Virus record (IMG/VR): IMGVR_UViG_2698536549_000026
Origin: a virus
Taxonomy: Duplodnaviria > Heunggongvirae > Uroviricota > Caudoviricetes
Reading direction: 5' to 3' (one strand)
DNA: 31,217 nt
The notes under the pieces were generated by a model. That model was not told the DNA's origin. It ran no database searches and was given only the letters and a program-made list of their open reading frames with translations. A program made the translations under genes and the position numbers. Shown one piece after another: positions 1 through 13,789 of the stretch (its first letter is position 1; each line of letters opens with the position of its first letter).

Positions 1-1674
1 CTATTCGATTATTGGTGAATATTTATTTTTAAGCTGGCGGCACTCCTGAGCGACCTGGCTGAACTGTGCGGCCTGCGGAGACGTGCCCGTTTTGGGGTGG
101 GTATGTGATGCTGTAATATCGGCCAGCTCTTCCACCACATCGGCAAGGTCCGTCAGCATGGTCAGTACATTAATGCCCTCGTTTCCCAGCTTCACCGTAT
201 CGCCAACCAGCTTCTGCGCCAGCGCAATACTGTGACGGACGCCCTTAATCTTTTCGGTAAGGCTGCCGCCCACGGTGTCCAGGGTGTCGCCTTCCACGTC
301 GCGCTCACAGGTACCGGCAACCACCATCATGTGTCCGCCCGTGCTGATGCTGTAGCTCTCTTCAGTGATATGGGTGACCGCGCCAGCCTGAAGCGTGGAT
401 ACGCCCAGGACGGTGGTTGTGTCGGTTGCCTGTATGGTGGTCTCCCGGCTGGTCAGGCTCCGCGTTTCCTCGTCTGCGCTCACCACGCGCTCGCGTGATG
501 TCTCCTGTATCCGCTGGTCTGTCTGGCGCACCCAGTCTCCGGCGACCGTCACGCGCTGCGATACGCCGTCGCGCTGTTGCTGCAACTGCTCGCCCGGCTT
601 CACGTCGGGCAGATTGTGGCCCTCTGCCATTATCTGGCGGATGAAGGGCTTATCCGCCCGGCCTTCCACAAATCCCACTTCCACCAGGGTTCCGGGCGGC
701 GGGAACTGGAACATGCCGGACTCACTGCCCGCCATGGGAACGGGGAGGGGAACGGCGTTATAAACGGGCGTATCCGCTGCCGGGTTGCCGTTCTCGTCAA
801 GCAGCTGGAGATTCACCGCGTAGCGGGGTCTGAACGGGTCGGCAATATTGCCCGCGCTGACGGCTTCGGTCGGCGCCTCAACACGTGCCAGTTTGGGCAG
901 GTGAAGCCCTGATGCCAGTTCAGGGAAGGCCTTTTCAGCCTGGCGACGGAAAGGGGACTTCTGGAGGGGAGCGCCGGTGGCTTTATTGCGCGGTGTCCAC
1001 GTGATGGTCATGTTGTCATCTTCCAGCATGACCATCGTCAGGCGCTGACCGTTCACCTCCACACCCGGTCGCAGCGTCTGAATCATCGGGAGGGTCATAC
1101 TGTGCCCGCCCGTTGATGCCTGGCTGAACTCGTGCGGGATGGTGACGGGGCGACCGGAAAACATCCCCTGCGCGGCAGCAGCGGCCATAATGCCGCCGTC
1201 CGGTAACGGATGCCAGATGTAATCCGGTACGGAGAAAATACGCCCCAGACTGGCCAGCAGTTCGTAGCCCGTGCCGCTGTGTGTGAAATGCGGAACGGGT
1301 CTGTCAGTGTAAGCCGCGTTGTCCGGCAGGATGATTTCCAGCCCGCTGGTCTCACTCAGCCACTGTGTGACCGTGCGCATTGTCGGGTGCTGAAATGAAC
1401 AGGGGAAGGGGTGATCAAGGATCCCCGCCATTTCACGAATCAGAAGCCGCACCGAGCCGTTTTCAGCGGGCTGGCTGCGTTCAACGTATCCGGTAAACCA
1501 GCGCACCAGGTCGTTTCCGTATCCGATATCGAGACGAACGGGGCGCCCGGTGTAGTTCTGCTCTGTTCTGGCCGTGATAAATCCGCGTCCGCACGCGTTC
1601 AGCTCAAGCATGACGGAACAACTGACCAGCTGAATGGTGTCGTTACCCAGTAACAGACGTTTAGTGGGGTTCAT
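1..1674 (-). CDS. phage tail/baseplate protein, possibly hub-spike-like; last late gene in the window
   Basis: 557-aa ORF, stop TAG at 1-3 on minus strand, co-oriented with tail operon. Central motif FQFPPPGTLVEVGFVEGRADKPFIRQI resembles the OB-fold signature of gp5/gpV/VgrG-type spikes. Family not verifiable by eye. Confidence 0.4.
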   Translation of the reverse strand: MNPTKRLLLGNDTIQLVSCSVMLELNACGRGFITARTEQNYTGRPVRLDIGYGNDLVRWFTGYVERSQPAENGSVRLLIREMAGILDHPFPCSFQHPTMRTVTQWLSETSGLEIILPDNAAYTDRPVPHFTHSGTGYELLASLGRIFSVPDYIWHPLPDGGIMAAAAAQGMFSGRPVTIPHEFSQASTGGHSMTLPMIQTLRPGVEVNGQRLTMVMLEDDNMTITWTPRNKATGAPLQKSPFRRQAEKAFPELASGLHLPKLARVEAPTEAVSAGNIADPFRPRYAVNLQLLDENGNPAADTPVYNAVPLPVPMAGSESGMFQFPPPGTLVEVGFVEGRADKPFIRQIMAEGHNLPDVKPGEQLQQQRDGVSQRVTVAGDWVRQTDQRIQETSRERVVSADEETRSLTSRETTIQATDTTTVLGVSTLQAGAVTHITEESYSISTGGHMMVVAGTCERDVEGDTLDTVGGSLTEKIKGVRHSIALAQKLVGDTVKLGNEGINVLTMLTDLADVVEELADITASHTHPKTGTSPQAAQFSQVAQECRQLKNKYSPIIE

Positions 1675-1676
1675 GG

Positions 1677-2219
1677 TTACTCCAGTGCATCATTGACGGG
1701 TTTGAGGACCTTTTCTTCGAACCAGGTCATTTTCTCCGGTGTTTCGTCGGCCACGGTCCCGCCTTTTGCGCCGGGCGTCTGCGGCGTCTGTTTACGGCTG
1801 CTGGCGGGGGTGGCGCGTGCCTGGCGTTTTTCCGGTACGCTTCGTCTTTCGCGTAATGTGAAGCTGACCTGCCAGGCGAGGCGGTCGGTCTGCTGCTGTG
1901 CGTCTATCTGCCCGGAAAATGTCCCTTCACGAAAGTTAATGGCGGCAGCGGTGGCGTTTGCGATACGGTAAACTTTCAGGGCACCGTCCCCGGTGGTGGC
2001 AGAGGCCAGCTGGAAAATGCGCTGAAGGGCCCGCTCATTGTCAAAGGTGATCATCCCGGTTACGCGAAGCTCTTTGGCCTTGATGCCCTGCTCGGCGTTC
2101 GCGGTGCTCGATGTCTGGCCGGACTGGTCCTTTTCCTGGAACTGCATCGAGGGCGAAATCACCATGTTCTGCATGAAAATACCCTCACCATCAAGGGCGA
2201 GCAGTGCGGTCTGGCTCAT
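1677..2219 (-). CDS. hypothetical phage protein, tail-associated by position
   Basis: 180-aa ORF between tail fibre assembly gene and the 557-aa tail protein, same strand. Start uncertain (29-nt overlap with upstream ORF; internal Met possible). No recognisable motif. Confidence 0.35.
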   Translation of the reverse strand: MSQTALLALDGEGIFMQNMVISPSMQFQEKDQSGQTSSTANAEQGIKAKELRVTGMITFDNERALQRIFQLASATTGDGALKVYRIANATAAAINFREGTFSGQIDAQQQTDRLAWQVSFTLRERRSVPEKRQARATPASSRKQTPQTPGAKGGTVADETPEKMTWFEEKVLKPVNDALE

Positions 2220-2916
2220 GGATCATTTTCCCCAGTTCAGTTAATGAGTCTGCCGCCAGGAGTGCGGCAACGGTATGTACGGCGGTCGGTGCCGGGATAT
2301 CCTTCACCATGGCCGCCGCTGCGGCGCGGTGATACCCCCGGTACTGAAATACCCAGGCCTGCGCCTTCTGTTCTGCCAGTGTTCTGATCCCCTCTTCCAG
2401 TCCGGCAAGTGCGCCAGCCCGTCTGCTGATAAAGCGGCTTATCTGGCGGCGAAGCCCTGCGGCATCCGGGCGTTGTGCTGCCAGCTGCCTGGCCTGTGCT
2501 GCACGGGCGGCACTGACTGCGCTGCGTATTGTGGAAACGGAAAGATGCACAGGTGCGGGCAGGGTGTCGGTGGTGATCGGGATTTGCATTTTGTCAGTGC
2601 TCAGACTGGCGGCAGCCTGCGCCATGCGCTGTGCCTGCGTGAATACCGGCACGGGCAGAACGGCGGTCAGTGCCGCCATTGACTGTATAAAAAGATCGTG
2701 GGTGTTTTCGGCAATCATGATAATGGTCACGTCGCCGGATGCACGGCTTCCGGCCATTTTCCCGGCCAGCCAGTTTATGGCGTTCGGAGGGCTTAAATAT
2801 ACCCCCGATTCTTCATATCGTCCCAGCCCGTAAGTCCACGGTGTGACGGGGATGACGGAACAGCTCAGCGGGGGCATGTCAGCGCTGACGCTGATTGTTT
2901 TTCTTGTCCACGTCAT
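2191..2916 (-). CDS. hypothetical protein immediately downstream of tail fibre assembly gene
   Basis: 241-aa ORF. ATG at 2916 preceded by GGAGG (revcomp of 2919-2926), 12 nt after the tfa stop. Ala-rich C-terminal half. No recognisable family. Confidence 0.4.
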   Translation of the reverse strand: MTWTRKTISVSADMPPLSCSVIPVTPWTYGLGRYEESGVYLSPPNAINWLAGKMAGSRASGDVTIIMIAENTHDLFIQSMAALTAVLPVPVFTQAQRMAQAAASLSTDKMQIPITTDTLPAPVHLSVSTIRSAVSAARAAQARQLAAQRPDAAGLRRQISRFISRRAGALAGLEEGIRTLAEQKAQAWVFQYRGYHRAAAAAMVKDIPAPTAVHTVAALLAADSLTELGKMIHEPDRTARP

Positions 2917-2927
2917 GGTGCCTCCGG

Positions 2928-3524
2928 TCAGCCTGCGTGATGATCCGGCGAAGGGGATTCAGGCCAGACAATATCCGGCGCGTTGCCCGTGTCTGTCCGG
3001 TTCAGTAATACCCGGTATTTTTTCCACAGGGGAAGCAGGGCGCTTTCATCGTCGGTCGCCATATTTAAATCCACGGCATCCTGGAGGATGTTTATTGTAT
3101 TTGTTGCTTCCTGTATTAATTCCCGTTTTTTATTCTCCGCCTCGCTCACCCGGTAAGCCTGTTCTGCTGCTTCATCCTTAACCCATGATGAACCATCCCA
3201 CCGGCAGAACTCCCCGTCCGGTTTTATTTCTGTCACGTTTTCCGGCAACGGTCCCGGCCCGGAAATGAATAAGGCAGCCCCCGAGTCCAGACGCCAGACG
3301 GTTTTACCCCGGTGATCTTCCATGAGGTGCCAGGTGTTTTCGTCCTCATCAAAGATAGCCACGTGTCCTTCAGGAATGTCAGGCGGGGCAATGTCCGTTG
3401 AGTGCGCAGGCAGTCCGGTATGCGGAGGGATCCAGGCATCGCCTTCGCCGATAAATTCATTTGTTCCGGCTGACAGGTTGTAGATTTTAATTGTCTGTGG
3501 GTGTTCGCTCATTTTAAAGGTCAT
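2928..3524 (-). CDS. tfa: tail fibre assembly protein (Tfa / P2 gpG-like chaperone)
   Basis: 198 aa. N-terminus [51 protein letters not shown] and C-terminus [29 protein letters not shown] match the conserved Tfa pattern from memory. Start overlaps fibre stop (TAATG). Confidence 0.85.
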
Positions 3525-5584
3525 TATGCAAGCCTCACGATGTAGTTAAATGCGATGTTTTTGACGGTGTTTTCCGCATTACCGGTGGGGTTAATGGTCA
3601 GGCCGTGGCCATGTTGACCCAGTGCGAGCGTGTGGATGTGTTCGCCAATGCTTACCGAATGTGTGTGTTCCGAAACTCTGGCGATCAGGTTCGCCCCGGA
3701 GCCCGGCCCGTATGCGGTCCAGTCAGCGCTGCCTTCCGGTGACGCGGTGGCGGTTCTTAATGATATTATTGCGCTGAACGGCCCCGCGCTGTTTGTTGTT
3801 TTTGTGCCGTAATTGAAGGATGAGGTCGTTTTTGTGCCAAGGTCAGTATTTGAGACGCTCCCTCCGTGGGTGTGCGATTTGATGCCGTCCTGCTCCTGTG
3901 ACAATACCGCACGACCGCTGGCAGGTTTTCCCTTGATTGTCCAGCCACGCATATCCGGGATACGACCATCCGGATAGGCTTTTGCCAGCAGGGGATATCG
4001 TGCTTTATCGAATGCCTGCCCCACCATGATGGCGTAACCGGCAGGCGGGGTGTCTGACGGCCACGGCAGGGGAACGCCTGCGGGTAACAACTCACTTGCA
4101 GGCAGTGCGCCGATGTCCTGTGGTGTGGGTTTGTTTTTGTCCGTGTAAGTGCGGTACCAGATGGTGCTTTTCCCTTTATTTAAAACAACCCCGGTGAACT
4201 GTGTGCGGAGGTACATGTCGGCAGGGTTTGGGCTTTCGAGACCTGTCGTGATCCTGATGATCCCCCCGTTGATGTCGCCTGATACTTCGATAAGGCAGCC
4301 TCCAAGGCAGATATCACCATAGCCCGTATCAGTGAGCACGCTGTGCCGGGAAAGTGAAATATTGGCTTTGAATATCCAGAGTCCTGGTCTGAAGGCGCCA
4401 CGTTCATTCAGCCATTCCACGAATTGTTCTGTTGTCCAGCGTTGCCCTGCTTCACCCACGTACCCGTCTTTTGCATAAACGCGTGGTGCGCCCACGTTGA
4501 TCAGGAACAGCTCCTTGTTGGGGATGTCCTCACCATTGCGGTTTTTCGCAAGCCGACCATCGGCGTTGTCCATGGCGATCTTTATAGCCTTTGGCGTGGC
4601 TGCCTGTGTCTCTGATGTACTGGTGGTGGCGCTGCTTAACTGTGTGAAGCCCTTTTCTTTCAGCGTTGCGTCCGGGTGGTTGCGTGATTTCTCGTGTTTT
4701 TTCAGAGCGTCCAGCCAGCGGCGTTCTTCCGGCGTTCCTCTGGGGCGCAGGTCAGTCACGTTGCCGTCTTCATCAATGTCAGCAAGGGCAAAAAAATATT
4801 GCCGGGCGGCCTCCTTCCTGTGTGCTTCCAGCAGGATCTCTTCCGTGGCGGCGGGGTCGGCCATGATAATATCGTGCTCCACCGTCCATTCACTGGTGAG
4901 CGTACCGGTCCACCATACTGTCAGCCAGATACGGGACGGGAAGTCTGGCGTGGTCAGCGGTATGTCTTCGGTCAGCTCTGCGCGTAATCCCTCCACGTAA
5001 CCGGTCCCTTTGCAGAGTGACCATCTTTCGCCTTTTTTAACCAGCCAGCCGTCCCCAAAGAATGCAGCGTTACCGTAAATATCGATGTTTTCCCGGCGCT
5101 GGCGCTCGTCCATGGCCGCCAGGCGTGCCGTGAAGTCTATCTGCCAGGTCTGCGCCGGGGTGGTGATACCTGTGGCTTCCTTCGCACCGCTGTACTCCAT
5201 GAGCATGGAACGGACCAGCACATTACCTTCGTTACCGTTGTGGGTTCTGATTTTTTTCTGTGTGGGGGCGTGAACAATCATGGCCAGCGTGCTGGTTGCT
5301 TTGCTGACCAGTCCCACCCAGTTAAATTCAAAATCACCCAGCTCTGCCCCCAGGGTGACCGAATAAACCACGGCATTCTCATTCACCACGCCGGTTTTGC
5401 CAACGGCCTGGCGGTGAACAATCTGATCTTCAGGTGGCAGGGTTTCGTCGGGGGATACCGGTGTTTCCGGGTTGAGGTCCGGGACGTTTGCAAAAACAAA
5501 CTCATCCAGCACAACGGGGGTGCCTTCCGCCGCCTGCTGTGCCTTGAGCCGGATAAAGGCGCTGGTAATTACAGATTTCGCCAT
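3524..5584 (-). CDS. tail fibre protein, lambda Stf / P2 gpH-like
   Basis: 686 aa. Contains [40 protein letters not shown] (conserved fibre collar motif) and a C-terminal receptor-binding region [31 protein letters not shown] ... [18 protein letters not shown] typical of Stf/gp37-like fibres. Confidence 0.9.
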
Positions 5585-5606: not shown

Positions 5607-6155
5607 TCACTCTGCCCTGGCCGTCCAGCAGATATACTCCCCTTCGTATGCGCCATAATGGATGATGAAGGGGTTAAGGGTTTCCACCTCAAAACGGTAA
5701 CGGCGGCATGTCCTGCCATATTTGCGGATGATCTCCAGAAGAAGATCGCTGTTGTCGGCTATCTGGCTGTCTGTCACCTGCACCAGGATCACATCCCAGT
5801 CCACGCCGGGCTTGCGCTCCTGCAACTCCACATGTCCAATGCCCAGCCGTTCAAAAATGGCAATAAATCCTGCCACCTCTCCGGCGTCCTGTGCATTGAC
5901 AAAGGCGTGGGCGATACGGCGGCGGTACAGTGATGTGGGTTCACCTTTAAAACGGGTGATGTCCCGCTCCCATGCCAGTAAATCAAGTACGGGCTCTGCA
6001 CATGTCATGGGGTCAAACTGGCGCACGGGCCAGGTGATCCATTCCCATACGCGGGACCAGAACGCCTGCGCGGCCCGCAGCAGTTTGTCGGGTTCCCCCC
6101 TGTCCATCCAGGAGGGCAGTTTCAGCGAGCGAAGTCGCTGCAAAAAGTCATTCAA
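5607..6155 (-). CDS. baseplate/tail protein (P2 gpI-like)
   Basis: 182-aa ORF between baseplate J-like gene and fibre gene, the position of P2 gpI and of YmfQ-type genes in e14-type tails. Assignment by synteny and size. Confidence 0.55.
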   Translation of the reverse strand: MNDFLQRLRSLKLPSWMDRGEPDKLLRAAQAFWSRVWEWITWPVRQFDPMTCAEPVLDLLAWERDITRFKGEPTSLYRRRIAHAFVNAQDAGEVAGFIAIFERLGIGHVELQERKPGVDWDVILVQVTDSQIADNSDLLLEIIRKYGRTCRRYRFEVETLNPFIIHYGAYEGEYICWTARAE

Positions 6156-7332
6156 TGACCACCTCCACTGTCAGGGATTCGAGCCGTGGCACGGCCAGAT
6201 CGCTGATGATGTCTTCCAGTGAAAACTGAACCGAAGCCACCACCGGGAAGGTCTGATGAATTTCCTTGCCCAGCGTGGAAAACGAAAAGCGCGAATAGGG
6301 CCAGACTTTTTTCACATTAAAGCGGGCGTTCTCCCGAAAAGCGCAGCGTATCAGGTCGCTGATATCCTGTTTCAGCCCTTCCGCGCCGTCCGGTGGCAGG
6401 GTGGTTGAGCTTCTGATGTATACGGTGACGTCCAGACGGTGACGCGTCTCCGGCATGGCGAAACACTGCAAATCATCCCCGTGTCCGTGGTGCCCCTCTT
6501 CGTTGATGTAGCGGTTGACTGCTTCAATGAAAGGGGCAGAGGCCTCGCCGCTGTCCAGTAACAGGTAGGCGTTGGCCGTTCCCGGTCCTCTCGGGGCGTC
6601 GTGCTGAAAGTAGATCCGGTCGATGCTCAGGCCTGCCACGCTGGCGATAAGTCCCCGGTAGACGGCGTCCGTGTGGTAACTGCTCACGAGGTTAAACTGG
6701 TTGCGTATTCTGTCGCGCAGTTCGTCGTCGCTTTCCTCATCGGCACCCGGTACGGTCAGCCAGTCTTCCCGGTTCACCACGGATGCAATGCCGGGAATGG
6801 CAACGGGAAGGATACGGAAGTACCCCGGCGCGAGGTTGTGCCCGCTGCCTTCGGTGGTGGCTTCCACGGGAACGGATGCGCCGCTTTTACCGCTGCTGAT
6901 AAGCGTTTCCTCCGTGACGGCCATGCTGTATATCACGCCGTTAATTCTGGCGGTCTGGACGATGGTCCCTTCGGGGATGAGAACATCATCATTTGCCCTG
7001 GTTTTGGCAAACCAGATCACGCCACTGGCCTTACTGGCCGGTTTTGGGGTGATGTTGACGTCGTGCGCATGAAGCAGAAGAAGTGACCGGTCAGCCGTGG
7101 CGACAAACATACCGGGCAGCACAACGTCAACCAGCGCATCACGCAGCCACTGAACGGGTCGTATGACAATGGTCAGAATGAGCCGCCAGAAGGGACTCAT
7201 GGGCGAGGTGTTGGTGATGAGTCCGGTTTTCTGTACATCCTCATGAAAGAGGGTGGCGATCTCTTCTTCTGTTTCCGGCATACCGCTTTCACGGAATACC
7301 TGATTAAAATCAACGTCCGGTTTCCCTTTCAT
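6148..7332 (-). CDS. baseplate J-like protein (gpJ/gp47 family)
   Basis: 394-aa ORF downstream of tape measure and small baseplate gene, upstream of gpI-like and fibre genes. Size and synteny fit baseplate J. Confidence 0.6.
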   Translation of the reverse strand: MKGKPDVDFNQVFRESGMPETEEEIATLFHEDVQKTGLITNTSPMSPFWRLILTIVIRPVQWLRDALVDVVLPGMFVATADRSLLLLHAHDVNITPKPASKASGVIWFAKTRANDDVLIPEGTIVQTARINGVIYSMAVTEETLISSGKSGASVPVEATTEGSGHNLAPGYFRILPVAIPGIASVVNREDWLTVPGADEESDDELRDRIRNQFNLVSSYHTDAVYRGLIASVAGLSIDRIYFQHDAPRGPGTANAYLLLDSGEASAPFIEAVNRYINEEGHHGHGDDLQCFAMPETRHRLDVTVYIRSSTTLPPDGAEGLKQDISDLIRCAFRENARFNVKKVWPYSRFSFSTLGKEIHQTFPVVASVQFSLEDIISDLAVPRLESLTVEVVIE

Positions 7333-7660
7333 AGTTCACCCTGGTGTTTATGCGTCCAAAATCCTGTGTCTCTGCCGTCACATGCAGCCTGCCCGGTGCC
7401 TCTTCGTTAATGAACACCGTCCCCGGAACCAGCCGTTCATCATCCTCAACCAGGAGGATAAGCCGGGTAATGATGTCGCTGCGCAGCGTCGGGCTGCGTT
7501 CGCCGATAAGCAGGGCGGCGATCCCGCTTTCGATAATGCTGTGCACCACGTCCTGGCCGATGCTGACCCGGTTATCACATCGCTGTGGCTCGTTTCCGCT
7601 GTTCAGCGTAAAACTGCCGTCAGTGATAAGCAGGTCGATGTAAAGCGATGGCGTGTTCAT
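7310..7660 (-). CDS. small baseplate protein (gpW/gp46-like), hypothetical
   Basis: ORF track gives 7310..7681. An in-frame ATG at 7660 forms an ATGA overlap with the tape measure stop, giving about 116 aa. Position immediately after tape measure. Confidence 0.45.
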   Translation of the reverse strand: MNTPSLYIDLLITDGSFTLNSGNEPQRCDNRVSIGQDVVHSIIESGIAALLIGERSPTLRSDIITRLILLVEDDERLVPGTVFINEEAPGRLHVTAETQDFGRINTRVNYERETGR

Positions 7661-9843
7661 CCCGCGTAAAGCTCCGTCCATTCATCCAGTTGCCCCGGCG
7701 TCATCGGGTTCTGCGTGTTGATTGTCAGATTGCCGAACGTCCGGCTGTTGTCGATACGGGTTGAGGTGTCCGTGCGTATCTGGTTGCGTATGCCTCCGGG
7801 TGGCAGCTCTGCGCTGATGCGGTTGCCTGCCAGTGCCGGGACGGCGGTTTCTGCAATCTGCGGAGGTACGGTGCTGCCTGTTGCGCCCCGCGTCATGGTG
7901 TTCACCTGCTCCGTGGGCTTCATGTCGATACTGATACCGGGGATTTTGTTCAGCTTTTCCGCAAGCCAGTTCCACGTCCGGTTAAACGAGTTTTTAATGA
8001 CGTTCCATAAGTCCCCGAAGACGTTACCGATGATCCCCGCCATTTTCCGGAAGGATTCGACCGGGGCGGTCGGGTCAAATGCAGCCACCACGTCCTGCCA
8101 CCCTCTGATGACGATGGCGAAGATGTCGATCAGGGTTCTGATCACGCTGATAACCACCTCCAGCGCGGGGGATATCAGGCTTACCGCTGCGGCCACCACG
8201 CGACCGCATGTTTCCCCGGCACGGGTGACGCTGTTCATCTGTCCCGTGGTCAGCTGTACCGGTGCAAACAGATCGGAGAAGGCACTGAACAGGGTTTTTA
8301 TGCCCTGCCATACCGGGGCCAGCGCCCGGGCAATGTCACCGAACGCGGCAGTCACCGGGCTCATGGCGTCCAGTGCGCTGGTAAAACCATCAATAAAGCC
8401 GCGAATAAAGGCTTTGATGGGCTGCCAGAACTTAATGGCCACCACCACCAGAGCAGCGATGGCGGCGGCAACCAGGAGGACCGGGGCGCTCATGGTCAGA
8501 AACGACACGCCCGCCAGACGCGCGGCAAGACTGGTGGCAATGATGGCACTGCGTACTTTTGTGAGTGCAAGCGTGTACAGACTCCAGGCTGCCCTGGCGC
8601 CCTTTATGATGGCCTTATGGCCTTCCATGATGAAGCTGAACACACCCAGCACGATGTTCGTGACCGCACCGGCTGCGCCCAGCGCCAGCATGGTCAGCGT
8701 GATGTAACCCAGCCAGCGGGCGATGTTCGGGAACATGTTCAGCCAGCGCACGAACGTCGCGCCGATATCGGCAAAACGGCCAGCCAGTGGTGCGAGAATG
8801 GGGTAGAGGGCGTTACCGATGGCGGCCCGGATGTTGTAGAAGGAGGCCACAAGGCGGTCCCACGGGTCGGTCATGGCTTCCGCCATTTCCGTGGCACGCT
8901 TCATGCCGTCATTACGCCCCAGCGCTGATATGCTCCGGTTAAGCATTTCCTGCTGTCCCCAGAGTTTTTTAATCACGTCCGCGCCACTGCCGAAGGCGTC
9001 ATCCAGCGCCTGTTGTGCCGCCACGTTACCCTCAATGTTCCTGCCGAACCTCGCCTGCAGACGGTCGAGGATGTCACCCATGGGTAAAATCTTCCCGGTG
9101 GCATCGACAAAACTCATCCCCATTTTTTGTGCGGCAGCGGGGGCACTGCGCAGGAATTCCTCATAGATGCCCGATGCCTCGGTGCCCATGGTCCGTGACA
9201 GGGTGCCCAGTATGGCAAACTGCTCTGCCATGCTGACGCCAAAATCCGCGCCCGCGTTTTTGGTGCCCTCAATAAGCTCCTGCATGGTGCTCATTTCCAC
9301 GCCGAACTGCTGAACCATCCACGCGGTTTTACCTGCCAGATCTTCAGCAAACCCCACGGCACCCATGGCAGAAAACTCACTGCGGAAACGGGCACCCATG
9401 GCGGCAAGGTAGCCGCTCGCCTCTTCGCTGCTGACGCGGGCAGCCACGGCCAGGGTGCTGGTTGCTGCCGTCACACGGGGTAAATCCCCGTCGCTCAGTC
9501 CGTCCAGTGCGCCGCGAATATGCCATGCGGAACGGATGATCTCCGTGGAAGACTGACCGAATGCGGTCCCCAGTTTCATGGCCTGCGTGGTGAGGGCGGT
9601 CAGCGCCTGCGCCCCGACGCCTTTGGCCTCAAGCTCGCCCAGCGCCTTCTGCATCTCCCACGCCGGATCCATCGCGGCGCGGATACCTTCGGCCACGCCC
9701 CACAGTCCGGCCACACCCACACCGATACGCGCGAACGCGCCCTGCGAGCGTTCGGCGAATCCCGTCACGGATTCCTGAACCTGCCGCAGCGGGCGGGTAA
9801 GCTGGTCTGTCAGATTGATAATGAAATCCAGCTGGCTGGCCAT
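7657..9843 (-). CDS. tail tape measure protein
   Basis: 728 aa, Ala/Gly-rich with a long predicted helical N-terminal part and hydrophobic segments (e.g. ITLTMLALGAAGAVTNIVLGVFSFI). Directly downstream of the frameshifted chaperone. Confidence 0.85.
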   Translation of the reverse strand: MASQLDFIINLTDQLTRPLRQVQESVTGFAERSQGAFARIGVGVAGLWGVAEGIRAAMDPAWEMQKALGELEAKGVGAQALTALTTQAMKLGTAFGQSSTEIIRSAWHIRGALDGLSDGDLPRVTAATSTLAVAARVSSEEASGYLAAMGARFRSEFSAMGAVGFAEDLAGKTAWMVQQFGVEMSTMQELIEGTKNAGADFGVSMAEQFAILGTLSRTMGTEASGIYEEFLRSAPAAAQKMGMSFVDATGKILPMGDILDRLQARFGRNIEGNVAAQQALDDAFGSGADVIKKLWGQQEMLNRSISALGRNDGMKRATEMAEAMTDPWDRLVASFYNIRAAIGNALYPILAPLAGRFADIGATFVRWLNMFPNIARWLGYITLTMLALGAAGAVTNIVLGVFSFIMEGHKAIIKGARAAWSLYTLALTKVRSAIIATSLAARLAGVSFLTMSAPVLLVAAAIAALVVVAIKFWQPIKAFIRGFIDGFTSALDAMSPVTAAFGDIARALAPVWQGIKTLFSAFSDLFAPVQLTTGQMNSVTRAGETCGRVVAAAVSLISPALEVVISVIRTLIDIFAIVIRGWQDVVAAFDPTAPVESFRKMAGIIGNVFGDLWNVIKNSFNRTWNWLAEKLNKIPGISIDMKPTEQVNTMTRGATGSTVPPQIAETAVPALAGNRISAELPPGGIRNQIRTDTSTRIDNSRTFGNLTINTQNPMTPGQLDEWTELYAG

Positions 9844-12180: not shown

Positions 12181-12642
12181 TCACCCCTTCAGATCGCGGG
12201 TGTCACGGGCTGACAGGTAGGGCACGCCGTCAATGCTGATAAAGTCCGGGCTTGTGACCATGAACTTGATTTTTTTCGTGGTCTTTCCGGCTTCACCTGT
12301 GCTGATGTTCACCACGTCCGACAACATGGGGACGCAGCCGAACACCTCGATTTTTTCCTCCTCGCTGCCGTTGTTGGCATAAAAGAGAAAATCCTTTTCA
12401 GGAATGGCACGCCACGACCCCGCAGAGCGGGCCACGGCACCAAACTTTTTAAAGTTCTGCGCGTCGACTTCCACCTCCACATCGGCAGAAACAGAACCAC
12501 GGGTGTAGCCGTTCGGCACGCCGCGCGTCTGTGCCACGGCGCTGTTGTCGGTGATGGTGACGGTGGCGCTTTCCACGTGGATCATGATCCCGTCGTAGTT
12601 GATATCAAACGCGCCGCCGCTGATACGTTCATTTCCGGCCAT
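12181..12642 (-). CDS. tail tube protein (by synteny)
   Basis: ORF track gives 12181..12672. ATG at 12642 has a GGAG site about 8 nt upstream and lies 1 nt after the sheath stop, giving about 153 aa. Follows the sheath gene in the canonical sheath-tube-chaperone-tape measure order. Confidence 0.55.
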   Translation of the reverse strand: MAGNERISGGAFDINYDGIMIHVESATVTITDNSAVAQTRGVPNGYTRGSVSADVEVEVDAQNFKKFGAVARSAGSWRAIPEKDFLFYANNGSEEEKIEVFGCVPMLSDVVNISTGEAGKTTKKIKFMVTSPDFISIDGVPYLSARDTRDLKG

Positions 12643-12643
12643 G

Positions 12644-13789
12644 TCAGATCTCCAGTGCTGTGTCGAGTTCAATACTTACGCCAATGGCTTTTGCGCTCTC
12701 GTAGGGGCGTACCACAATGTAAATCTGCACGTGTGTACTGCTGGTCCAGACGATGGTGATATCCCCGTCCTGTGGCGGTTTAACCTCGCCGGGGAACGGT
12801 ACGCCGTTAATCTCCGTGGCGAGCGCCATTTCACGCAGCGTGCGGCTGAAATATGTCTGGCTGGCGGCAATGCTGCCCGGTGTGCTGTTGAGTGCGCGAT
12901 CCGCAAGGCGGGCAATGGCGCGCAGACGTACACGGCGGGAGACTTTATCCACCACGCGCACGTTTTCGATGACCTGGTAATCTCCCCCCTCCACATCAAG
13001 GGTGCGTCCGTCTGACCAGTAGAGCCCGTCGAAATCGTGATACCACATGGGCACGCTGAAGCGTTTGCCTTCCAGCGAGCGCAGCGTGGCCAGCTCAAGG
13101 GGCTGTTTCTTGCCGTCCTGCGGGATCTCATCGTTACCCATCGCCACCAGGGCACCGGTTGCCACACGTGCCGGACTGTCCGCAACGGTGACGGAAGGAT
13201 TACAGAGACGGCCCGCCAGTACGCCGGGCTCATTTCCCCATAAGCGGGGAACCACCATCACGCCAGGTGCTGCCACGCCGTCCTGTATGGCACTGATGCG
13301 GGTGACGTATGCCGCCCATGCCTCATCCTTGCCCGGTCCGGCCACGCACAGCATGAACCAGACAAAACGGCCATAAGCGGACTGAAGCAGGGCGCGGGTT
13401 TCGGTGGCGCGGTTAACGGCATCTTTGGCCGTGATGTCAATGGCAATCACCACGCCCTCGGCAGAAGCAATGGTCTGCGCTTTTTTCACCGCGTCCACCC
13501 ATGCGGCGTTAGCGTCGCCGCCCTCCGGTGCCGGGGGTTTGGGTTCAGACAGAACGTGAACATAGGCAAACCAGTTCTGGCCACCGTTGGCGATTGCGGC
13601 GGTAAGCGTGGATTTAAGCAGGCTTTCATCCGGTCCCAGCACGTCGTCCAGGTCGGTCTCAGGGGAGACGGAAAGGGTGTTACCTGTGTTCTTTTTGCCA
13701 TAGCCCACAAAAAGCAGCGTGCGCTCCACTTCACGGGTGGCACCGTTGAAACGGTTCTGATGGCTTACGGTTACATTCGGCCAGCTCAC
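12644..13789 (-). CDS. contractile tail sheath protein (non-P2-type, by synteny and size)
   Basis: 381 aa, immediately upstream of the tube gene and downstream of the tail-completion genes. No similarity to P2 FI that I can recognise. Confidence 0.55.
   Translation of the reverse strand: MSWPNVTVSHQNRFNGATREVERTLLFVGYGKKNTGNTLSVSPETDLDDVLGPDESLLKSTLTAAIANGGQNWFAYVHVLSEPKPPAPEGGDANAAWVDAVKKAQTIASAEGVVIAIDITAKDAVNRATETRALLQSAYGRFVWFMLCVAGPGKDEAWAAYVTRISAIQDGVAAPGVMVVPRLWGNEPGVLAGRLCNPSVTVADSPARVATGALVAMGNDEIPQDGKKQPLELATLRSLEGKRFSVPMWYHDFDGLYWSDGRTLDVEGGDYQVIENVRVVDKVSRRVRLRAIARLADRALNSTPGSIAASQTYFSRTLREMALATEINGVPFPGEVKPPQDGDITIVWTSSTHVQIYIVVRPYESAKAIGVSIELDTALEI

Follow-up and report, generated by a model that had tools for sequence, protein, structure and literature searches.

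What are the three genes that follow the tail fibre assembly gene tfa at one end of this phage genome: working parts of the tail, or accessory genes carried behind it? Within the window, by which we mean the whole 31,217-nucleotide stretch of DNA that was analysed, the initial annotation had noted three ORFs of 241, 180 and 557 aa after tfa and had offered both readings, namely displaced baseplate hub/spike components or accessory cargo. The three ORFs are confirmed, all on the minus strand, and bases 1-2916 hold the genes that close the late tail operon of an E. coli prophage from the HP1 subgroup of Peduoviridae. They comprise an orf33-like gene encoding 241 aa (2191..2916), an orf34-like gene encoding 180 aa (1677..2219) and an orf35-like gene encoding 557 aa (1..1674), the stop codon of which occupies bases 1-3 of the window. 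These are real genes rather than chance ORFs, because each has many homologues (PHROG E 3e-59, 3e-66 and 2e-241, respectively). Before them lie tfa (2928..3524, minus strand; Caudo_TAP in Pfam, E 1.6e-38), the tail fibre gene directly upstream of it (3524..5584) and the rest of the baseplate operon (5607..9843, minus strand), recognised from PHROG and Pfam matches. The latter includes the tape measure (7657-9843), a DUF2590 gene that the literature equates with a gpW-like sheath initiator (7310-7681), a gpJ-like wedge gene (6148-7332) and a gpI-like gene (5607-6155), all on the minus strand (assignments in PMC10612066 Table S1). The upstream location of the sheath gene (12644-13789) and the adjoining major tube gene (12181-12672; Phage_HP1_Orf24), remarked upon in the initial annotation, is confirmed, both preceding the tape measure and the baseplate genes. 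No near-identical DNA was found among deposited phages, and the sole match in an Rfam scan of positions 1-4000 was a sub-threshold IS009 inside tfa.

The trio consists of the E. coli prophage versions of orf33, orf34 and orf35 of Haemophilus phage HP1, with identities of 22%, 38% and 40% to the three HP1 proteins and of 48%, 74% and 68% to those of Salmonella phage SI7. Counterparts are arranged likewise behind the fibre genes of HP1, SI7, K139, phiO18P, F108 and YenM_324. The orthologous trios of the HP1 subgroup, such as K139 orf37-39, phiO18P gp44-46, F108 orf42-44, SI7 gp22-24 and that of Cronobacter ESSI-2, share the position at the end of the tail operon after tfa as well as similar gene sizes, with no substantial difference from the trio described here. 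Moreover, the order tape measure, W, J, I, H, G, orf33, orf34, orf35 is kept in 78 of 80 IMG/VR loci, and in all non-marine phages of the HP1 subgroup that were examined, the trio comes after the tail fibre genes. The genes therefore cannot be called displaced, since this is the native HP1-type order (as in HP1, K139, phiO18P, F108, SI7 and the 78 IMG/VR loci) and not a rearranged version of P2. A comparison with related phages had been proposed as a way of learning which of the three genes are invariably present; it bears out the order of the trio, but not the constancy of orf33, which is missing from a marine clade. Of 5426 complete E. coli genomes, 12 carry the particular prophage variant studied here.

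The 557-aa protein is most likely a natural fusion of hub and spike, equivalent to P2 gpD plus gpV and VgrG-like in its working. It matches phrog_2258 ('baseplate protein', E 2e-241) and shares 38% identity along its entire length with HP1 orf35, which has already been published as a gpD+gpV fusion (PMC10612066 Table S1), and both halves of such a fusion have been found in the virions of Pseudoalteromonas phage ACA1 (PMC10612066). The OB-fold-like motif that had suggested a baseplate spike is real, if weak in this copy: Pfam Phage_base_V (PF04717) matches residues 310-345 (640..747, minus strand) at 18.7 bits and E 0.0022, below the 23.8-bit cut-off, and 21 of 23 family members match the same profile (best E 4.6e-5). 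When searched against the PDB, the family profile matched the OB domains of VgrG chains at residues 313-365 and the C-terminal beta-helix of T4 gp5 at residues 371-499 (E 1.8e-5), and the OB region gave a weak match to Pvc8 as well. The latter span corresponds to a gp5-like triple-stranded beta-helix at approximately 178..564 (minus strand), and Gp5_C or Gp5_trimer_C is matched in 9-10 of the 23 members, phrog_430 in 11, and phrog_9992, to which P2 gpV belongs, in two. Beyond the helix is an apex motif, SHTHP (residues 523-527; 94..108, minus strand), with H524 and H526 invariant across the 23 sequences. It parallels the HTHKHP found in the C-terminus of P2 gpV (LHTHKHPGD; Pfam Apex, PF18946), and a single family member matches the Apex profile (GpV) itself.

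The N-terminal ~228 residues (991..1674, minus strand) probably adopt a hub fold and would serve as the mounting domain of the protein. This is suggested by a published HHpred comparison relating the N-terminal domain to P2 gpD at 10% identity (PMC10612066), by the match to phrog_196 ('baseplate hub'; E 2e-5 in this protein and found in 10 of 23 members, with a best E of 3.8e-9), and by gene splitting, as the hub part is a separate gene in ACA1, C5a, SMHB1, ValM-yong1 and Canoevirus. The split falls at approximately residue 228, and the stand-alone hub genes align to positions 2-228 of the 557-aa family profile. Pfam Phage_GPD had no match in the family, and the isolated hub-domain profile returned from the PDB only a spurious repeat-motif match to designed 'Bagel' proteins. 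Nothing was found when our own family alignments were compared with the single sequences of P2 gpD, gpV and gpU using hhalign, because the family profiles are too shallow (Neff ~2.3), and a search of IMG/VR with P2 gpD for diverse homologues retrieved only copies that were 98-100% identical, so no useful gpD profile could be built.

The product of the 180-aa gene is most likely the tail tube initiator, corresponding to gpU of P2 and to the N-terminal domain of pyocin PA0626. Its residues 7-179 match positions 3-175 of the 180 in Pfam PF25759 (HP1_ORF34, 'baseplate complex protein') at 183.4 bits (E 4.1e-54; cut-off 27 bits). It has the beta-sandwich-plus-helix fold of tail tube (Hcp-like) proteins, together with a disordered linker at residues 137-161 and then a conserved C-terminal helix at 166-177. 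Gene context backs the assignment, with the hub gene adjacent and a separate gene encoding the major tube protein. The 180-aa protein would work like gpU while lying outside the gpU sequence family, because Pfam PF06995 (Phage_P2_GpU) had no match to it at E <= 0.1, hhalign of its family against P2 gpU gave a probability of 0.1, and the published HHpred result tying ACA1 gp47, the HP1 orf34 homologue, to P2 gpU (PF06995) did so at 15% identity and was flagged as uncertain by its authors (PMC10612066). When the 180-aa and 241-aa proteins were compared with PDB sequences, both as single sequences and as profiles, only chance matches such as HAMP, haemagglutinin HA2 and acrosin emerged. It is conceivable that the 180-aa protein uses its tube fold in some other capacity, as a second 'baseplate tube', an adaptor ring or something akin to a distal tail protein, in which case the initiator would be encoded elsewhere, for example by the 241-aa gene. 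In some myophages, two or more tube-like rings are indeed stacked on the hub (T4 gp48 and gp54; Pa193 gp37, gp38 and gp39), and the doubt attached to the gpU link by those who reported it (PMC10612066) would suit such a role. However, we regard this as very unlikely, as only two tube-fold genes are recognised in this ~30-kb phage, the major tube gene and the 180-aa gene, the model of the 241-aa protein shows an alpha/beta structure with a helical insert instead of a tube fold, and the order of orf34 followed by the hub gene mirrors that of U and D in P2 and of PA0626 through PA0628 in pyocin R2.

The 241-aa protein is the one member of the trio without a known tail homologue. Consequently, clear homology to known tail components, which the initial annotation had contemplated for all three proteins, holds for the 180-aa and 557-aa products and not for this one; its proposal of baseplate hub/spike components is likewise right for the 557-aa protein (hub-spike) and the 180-aa protein (tube initiator on the hub) and does not extend to the 241-aa protein. 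The strong RBS that had been remarked upon is GGAGG at 2921..2925 (minus strand), 4 nt before the ATG at 2916, and the alanine-rich C-terminus is equally evident, with 29 alanines among the 120 residues from 121 to 240. Alanine accounts for 17.8% of the protein overall, compared with 4-10% for the listed baseplate and fibre proteins, 11.5% for the sheath and 15.1% for the tape measure. Residues 16-223 match phrog_1677, the HP1 orf33 family (E 3.3e-59), which has 237 representatives among 1.84 billion proteins, no fused domains and sizes mostly of 200-320 aa, shorter members having the appearance of fragments. The structural model (mean pLDDT 69.7, moderate) predicts an alpha/beta core formed by residues 1-100 and 183-235 and, at low confidence, an alanine-rich helical insert at ~105-182; no fold relative of this model was recognised, and no LysM domain was found in the protein. 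A lipoprotein or signal peptide was considered and rejected, as the N-terminus has neither a hydrophobic core nor a canonical lipobox and its cysteine is not conserved outside enterobacteria.

Inheritance places the 241-aa protein with the baseplate. Its matrix of pairwise identities correlates at r ~0.9 with those of gpJ, gpI, orf34, orf35 and DUF2590, but at 0.40 with that of tfa. Among 54 pairs of loci with near-identical flanks, orf33 retained at least 90.5% identity, while tfa had been replaced in 28. It is evident that tfa is a swappable module ending right before the 241-aa gene, and that the 241-aa protein evolves with the baseplate core and not with this module. Phage ACA1, the only member of the group with virion proteomics (PMC10612066), encodes gp46-gp49 in the same order (orf33-like, gpU-like, hub and spike), of which gp46, gp48 and gp49 were detected. 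It differs from the present prophage in having separate hub and spike genes in place of the fused 557-aa protein, a gp46 shorter than the 241-aa protein, and a fibre module bearing a diversity-generating retroelement. ACA1 gp47 matches orf34 at E 8e-34 (hmmsearch) and Pfam HP1_ORF34 at E 1e-30, whereas gp46 matches the orf33 profile at E 6e-8 over positions 68-232 only and is ~16% identical to HP1 orf33. Detection of gp46 in virions amounts to 2 spectra and 6% coverage, which corresponds to 0.09 spectra per kDa vs 0.08 for gpW, 0.05 for gpJ and 0.06 for gpV (PMC10612066). No usable virion proteomics turned up in the literature for further HP1-subgroup phages (YenM_324, PV94). Orf33 has no counterpart in C5a, yong1, SMHB1 or either of two Vibrio cyclitrophicus phages, and the annotations of SMHB1 and of the right ends of the other four list no gpX-like or LysM protein; one H. 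influenzae prophage has an internal deletion of orf33. Taken at face value, these observations describe a minor protein restricted to the HP1 lineage that is probably present in the virion, most likely as an accessory protein of the baseplate, a location that we infer.

An assembly factor could account for some of the same data. If the 241-aa protein acted as a chaperone or scaffold in building the hub-spike trimer or in attaching fibres to the baseplate, it would leave the particle or persist as a trace contaminant, and its gene does directly follow that of the fibre chaperone tfa. Such a role would also fit the slender mass spectrometry record from a distant homologue (those 2 spectra and 6% coverage for gp46), the several HP1-subgroup phages that build tails without orf33, a faster rate of evolution than that of neighbouring genes (mean identity 0.535 vs 0.66-0.72), and the conserved, predicted-disordered segments at residues 28-38 and 105-116, as might be expected of a transient binder. 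Nevertheless, ACA1 gp46 equals true baseplate proteins in spectra per kDa, and several suspected non-structural proteins went undetected in the same virions (PMC10612066). The 241-aa protein also lacks co-variation with tfa or the fibre tip, and the homologue in Yersinia phage YenM_324 was labelled a 'structural protein' by its depositors. We therefore consider a non-virion assembly role unlikely and favour a virion baseplate protein.

The notion of accessory cargo fares far worse. It would have all three genes, or at least the 241-aa gene, be moron or host-interaction genes placed after the fibre module in the manner of the P2 Z/fun locus, and indeed the position after gene G in P2 holds the non-essential fun(Z), the 241-aa protein lacks a known family or fold, and orf33 is missing from some relatives. 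The parallel, drawn in the initial annotation, is true of P2 and irrelevant here. The trio lies on the strand of the tail genes and within their operon, and its junctions are translationally coupled: as read from the sequence, 2 nt separate the tfa stop codon from the GGAGG of the 241-aa gene, the 241-aa and 180-aa genes share 29 nt where the first ends and the second begins, and the ATG of the 557-aa gene lies 2 nt past the 180-aa stop codon, with GGAG 5 nt upstream of it. No promoter-like sites occur inside the trio vs 2.0 expected by chance, terminator-like sites are at chance level, and in the N51 copy (99.5% identical) a terminator hairpin is found 3' of the orf35 stop codon. GC content across the trio is 0.59-0.60, matching the core tail genes; that of the 241-aa gene, 0.598, is close to the values for the tape measure (0.607) and sheath (0.599) genes, whereas tfa stands apart at 0.526. 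Furthermore, orf33 keeps its place across phages of Haemophilus, Vibrio, Aeromonas, Pseudomonas and enterobacteria, its inheritance follows the baseplate core, and the 180-aa and 557-aa products are indispensable to any contractile tail and encoded nowhere else in the window. The trio thus displays none of the hallmarks of morons or cargo, namely a promoter or terminator of its own, deviant composition, and a sporadic, uncoupled distribution. An accessory origin is extremely improbable and close to refuted.

Based upon these features, the trio probably represents the conserved inner, axial baseplate set of the HP1-type tail operon, composed of a hub-spike, a tube initiator and an accessory orf33 protein. 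The 557-aa protein would be a single-chain hub and spike, presumably assembled as a trimer, whose N-terminal ~228 residues take the part of P2 gpD (T4 gp27), followed by the OB fold, the beta-helix and the His-X-His apex. It would plug the tip of the tail tube, and sheath contraction would drive it through the host outer membrane, much as with VgrG. By analogy with P2 gpU, pyocin PA0626, Mu gp43 and T4 gp48/54, the 180-aa protein would form a ring seated on the hub and act as the template for the initial ring of tube protein, and its linker and C-terminal helix probably reach the wedges, like the helix of P2 gpU. The 241-aa protein may be a low-copy accessory subunit of the virion at the hub-wedge interface, where it might do the job of the P2 LysM 'glue' protein gpX, since no gpX homologue is present in this genome.

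The P2 baseplate comprises gpD, gpU, gpX, gpW, gpJ, gpI, gpV and gpH (10.64898/2026.09.14.750843), all of which are accounted for in the window except gpX; neither a gpX homologue nor a LysM gene was found anywhere in it. The two phages share this list of functional parts, an initiator gene followed by a hub gene, and an HxH spike apex, and the C-terminal helix of P2 gpU that touches the wedges (10.64898/2026.09.14.750843) parallels that of the 180-aa protein. However, the trio has no detectable sequence similarity to P2, the equivalents of D and V are fused, the genes follow the fibre genes and not the tape measure, gpX/LysM was not found, and nothing in P2 corresponds to the 241-aa protein. 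R-type pyocin R2 is another close known system, with PA0626 as the 'ripcord'/tube initiator (PDB 6U5B), PA0628 as hub and PA0616 as spike. Like T6SS VgrG and the eCIS proteins Pvc8/Afp8, the 557-aa protein would combine a hub domain, an OB fold and a beta-helix in one polypeptide. Membership of the T6SS VgrG family itself is rejected, as its scores fall far under the NCBIfam cut-offs (17.7 vs 121.8 bits for TIGR01646 and 14.3 vs 186.35 for TIGR03361). The N-terminal domain of gp27/VgrG spans ~380 residues vs ~228 here, and VgrG has a blunt end capped by PAAR in place of a gpV-type HxH apex. The 557-aa protein is accordingly VgrG-like in architecture only.

One further possibility, which we find doubtful yet worth stating, is that the orf33 family is a hitherto unrecognised class of baseplate subunit in contractile tails, with its own fold, replacing the LysM glue or acting as a detached 'ripcord'. 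If so, orf33 would bridge hub to wedge in most HP1-type phages, a role taken elsewhere by the LysM 'glue' domains of P2 gpX, T4 gp53 and the C-termini of eCIS initiators; as a ripcord, it would couple fibre movement to the release of initiator and hub. Its absence from a marine clade with split hub and spike genes would then mark two ways of building a minimal baseplate. The contractile baseplate of HP1-type phages does seem to be among the smallest known and to lack a LysM glue protein. Most of these phages encode one additional small protein, orf33, for which no fold relative was recognised; placing it within a baseplate structure would finish the inventory of this minimal machine. The trio itself is an ordinary, conserved end of the HP1-type tail operon, and its fusion is already known from HP1. 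For the many E. coli, Salmonella and other prophages that encode it, a hub-spike fusion, a tube initiator and an orf33-family minor tail protein can replace labels that are mostly 'hypothetical': RefSeq lists two of the three trio proteins in this way, and some phage records name the initiator an 'adenine glycosylase'.

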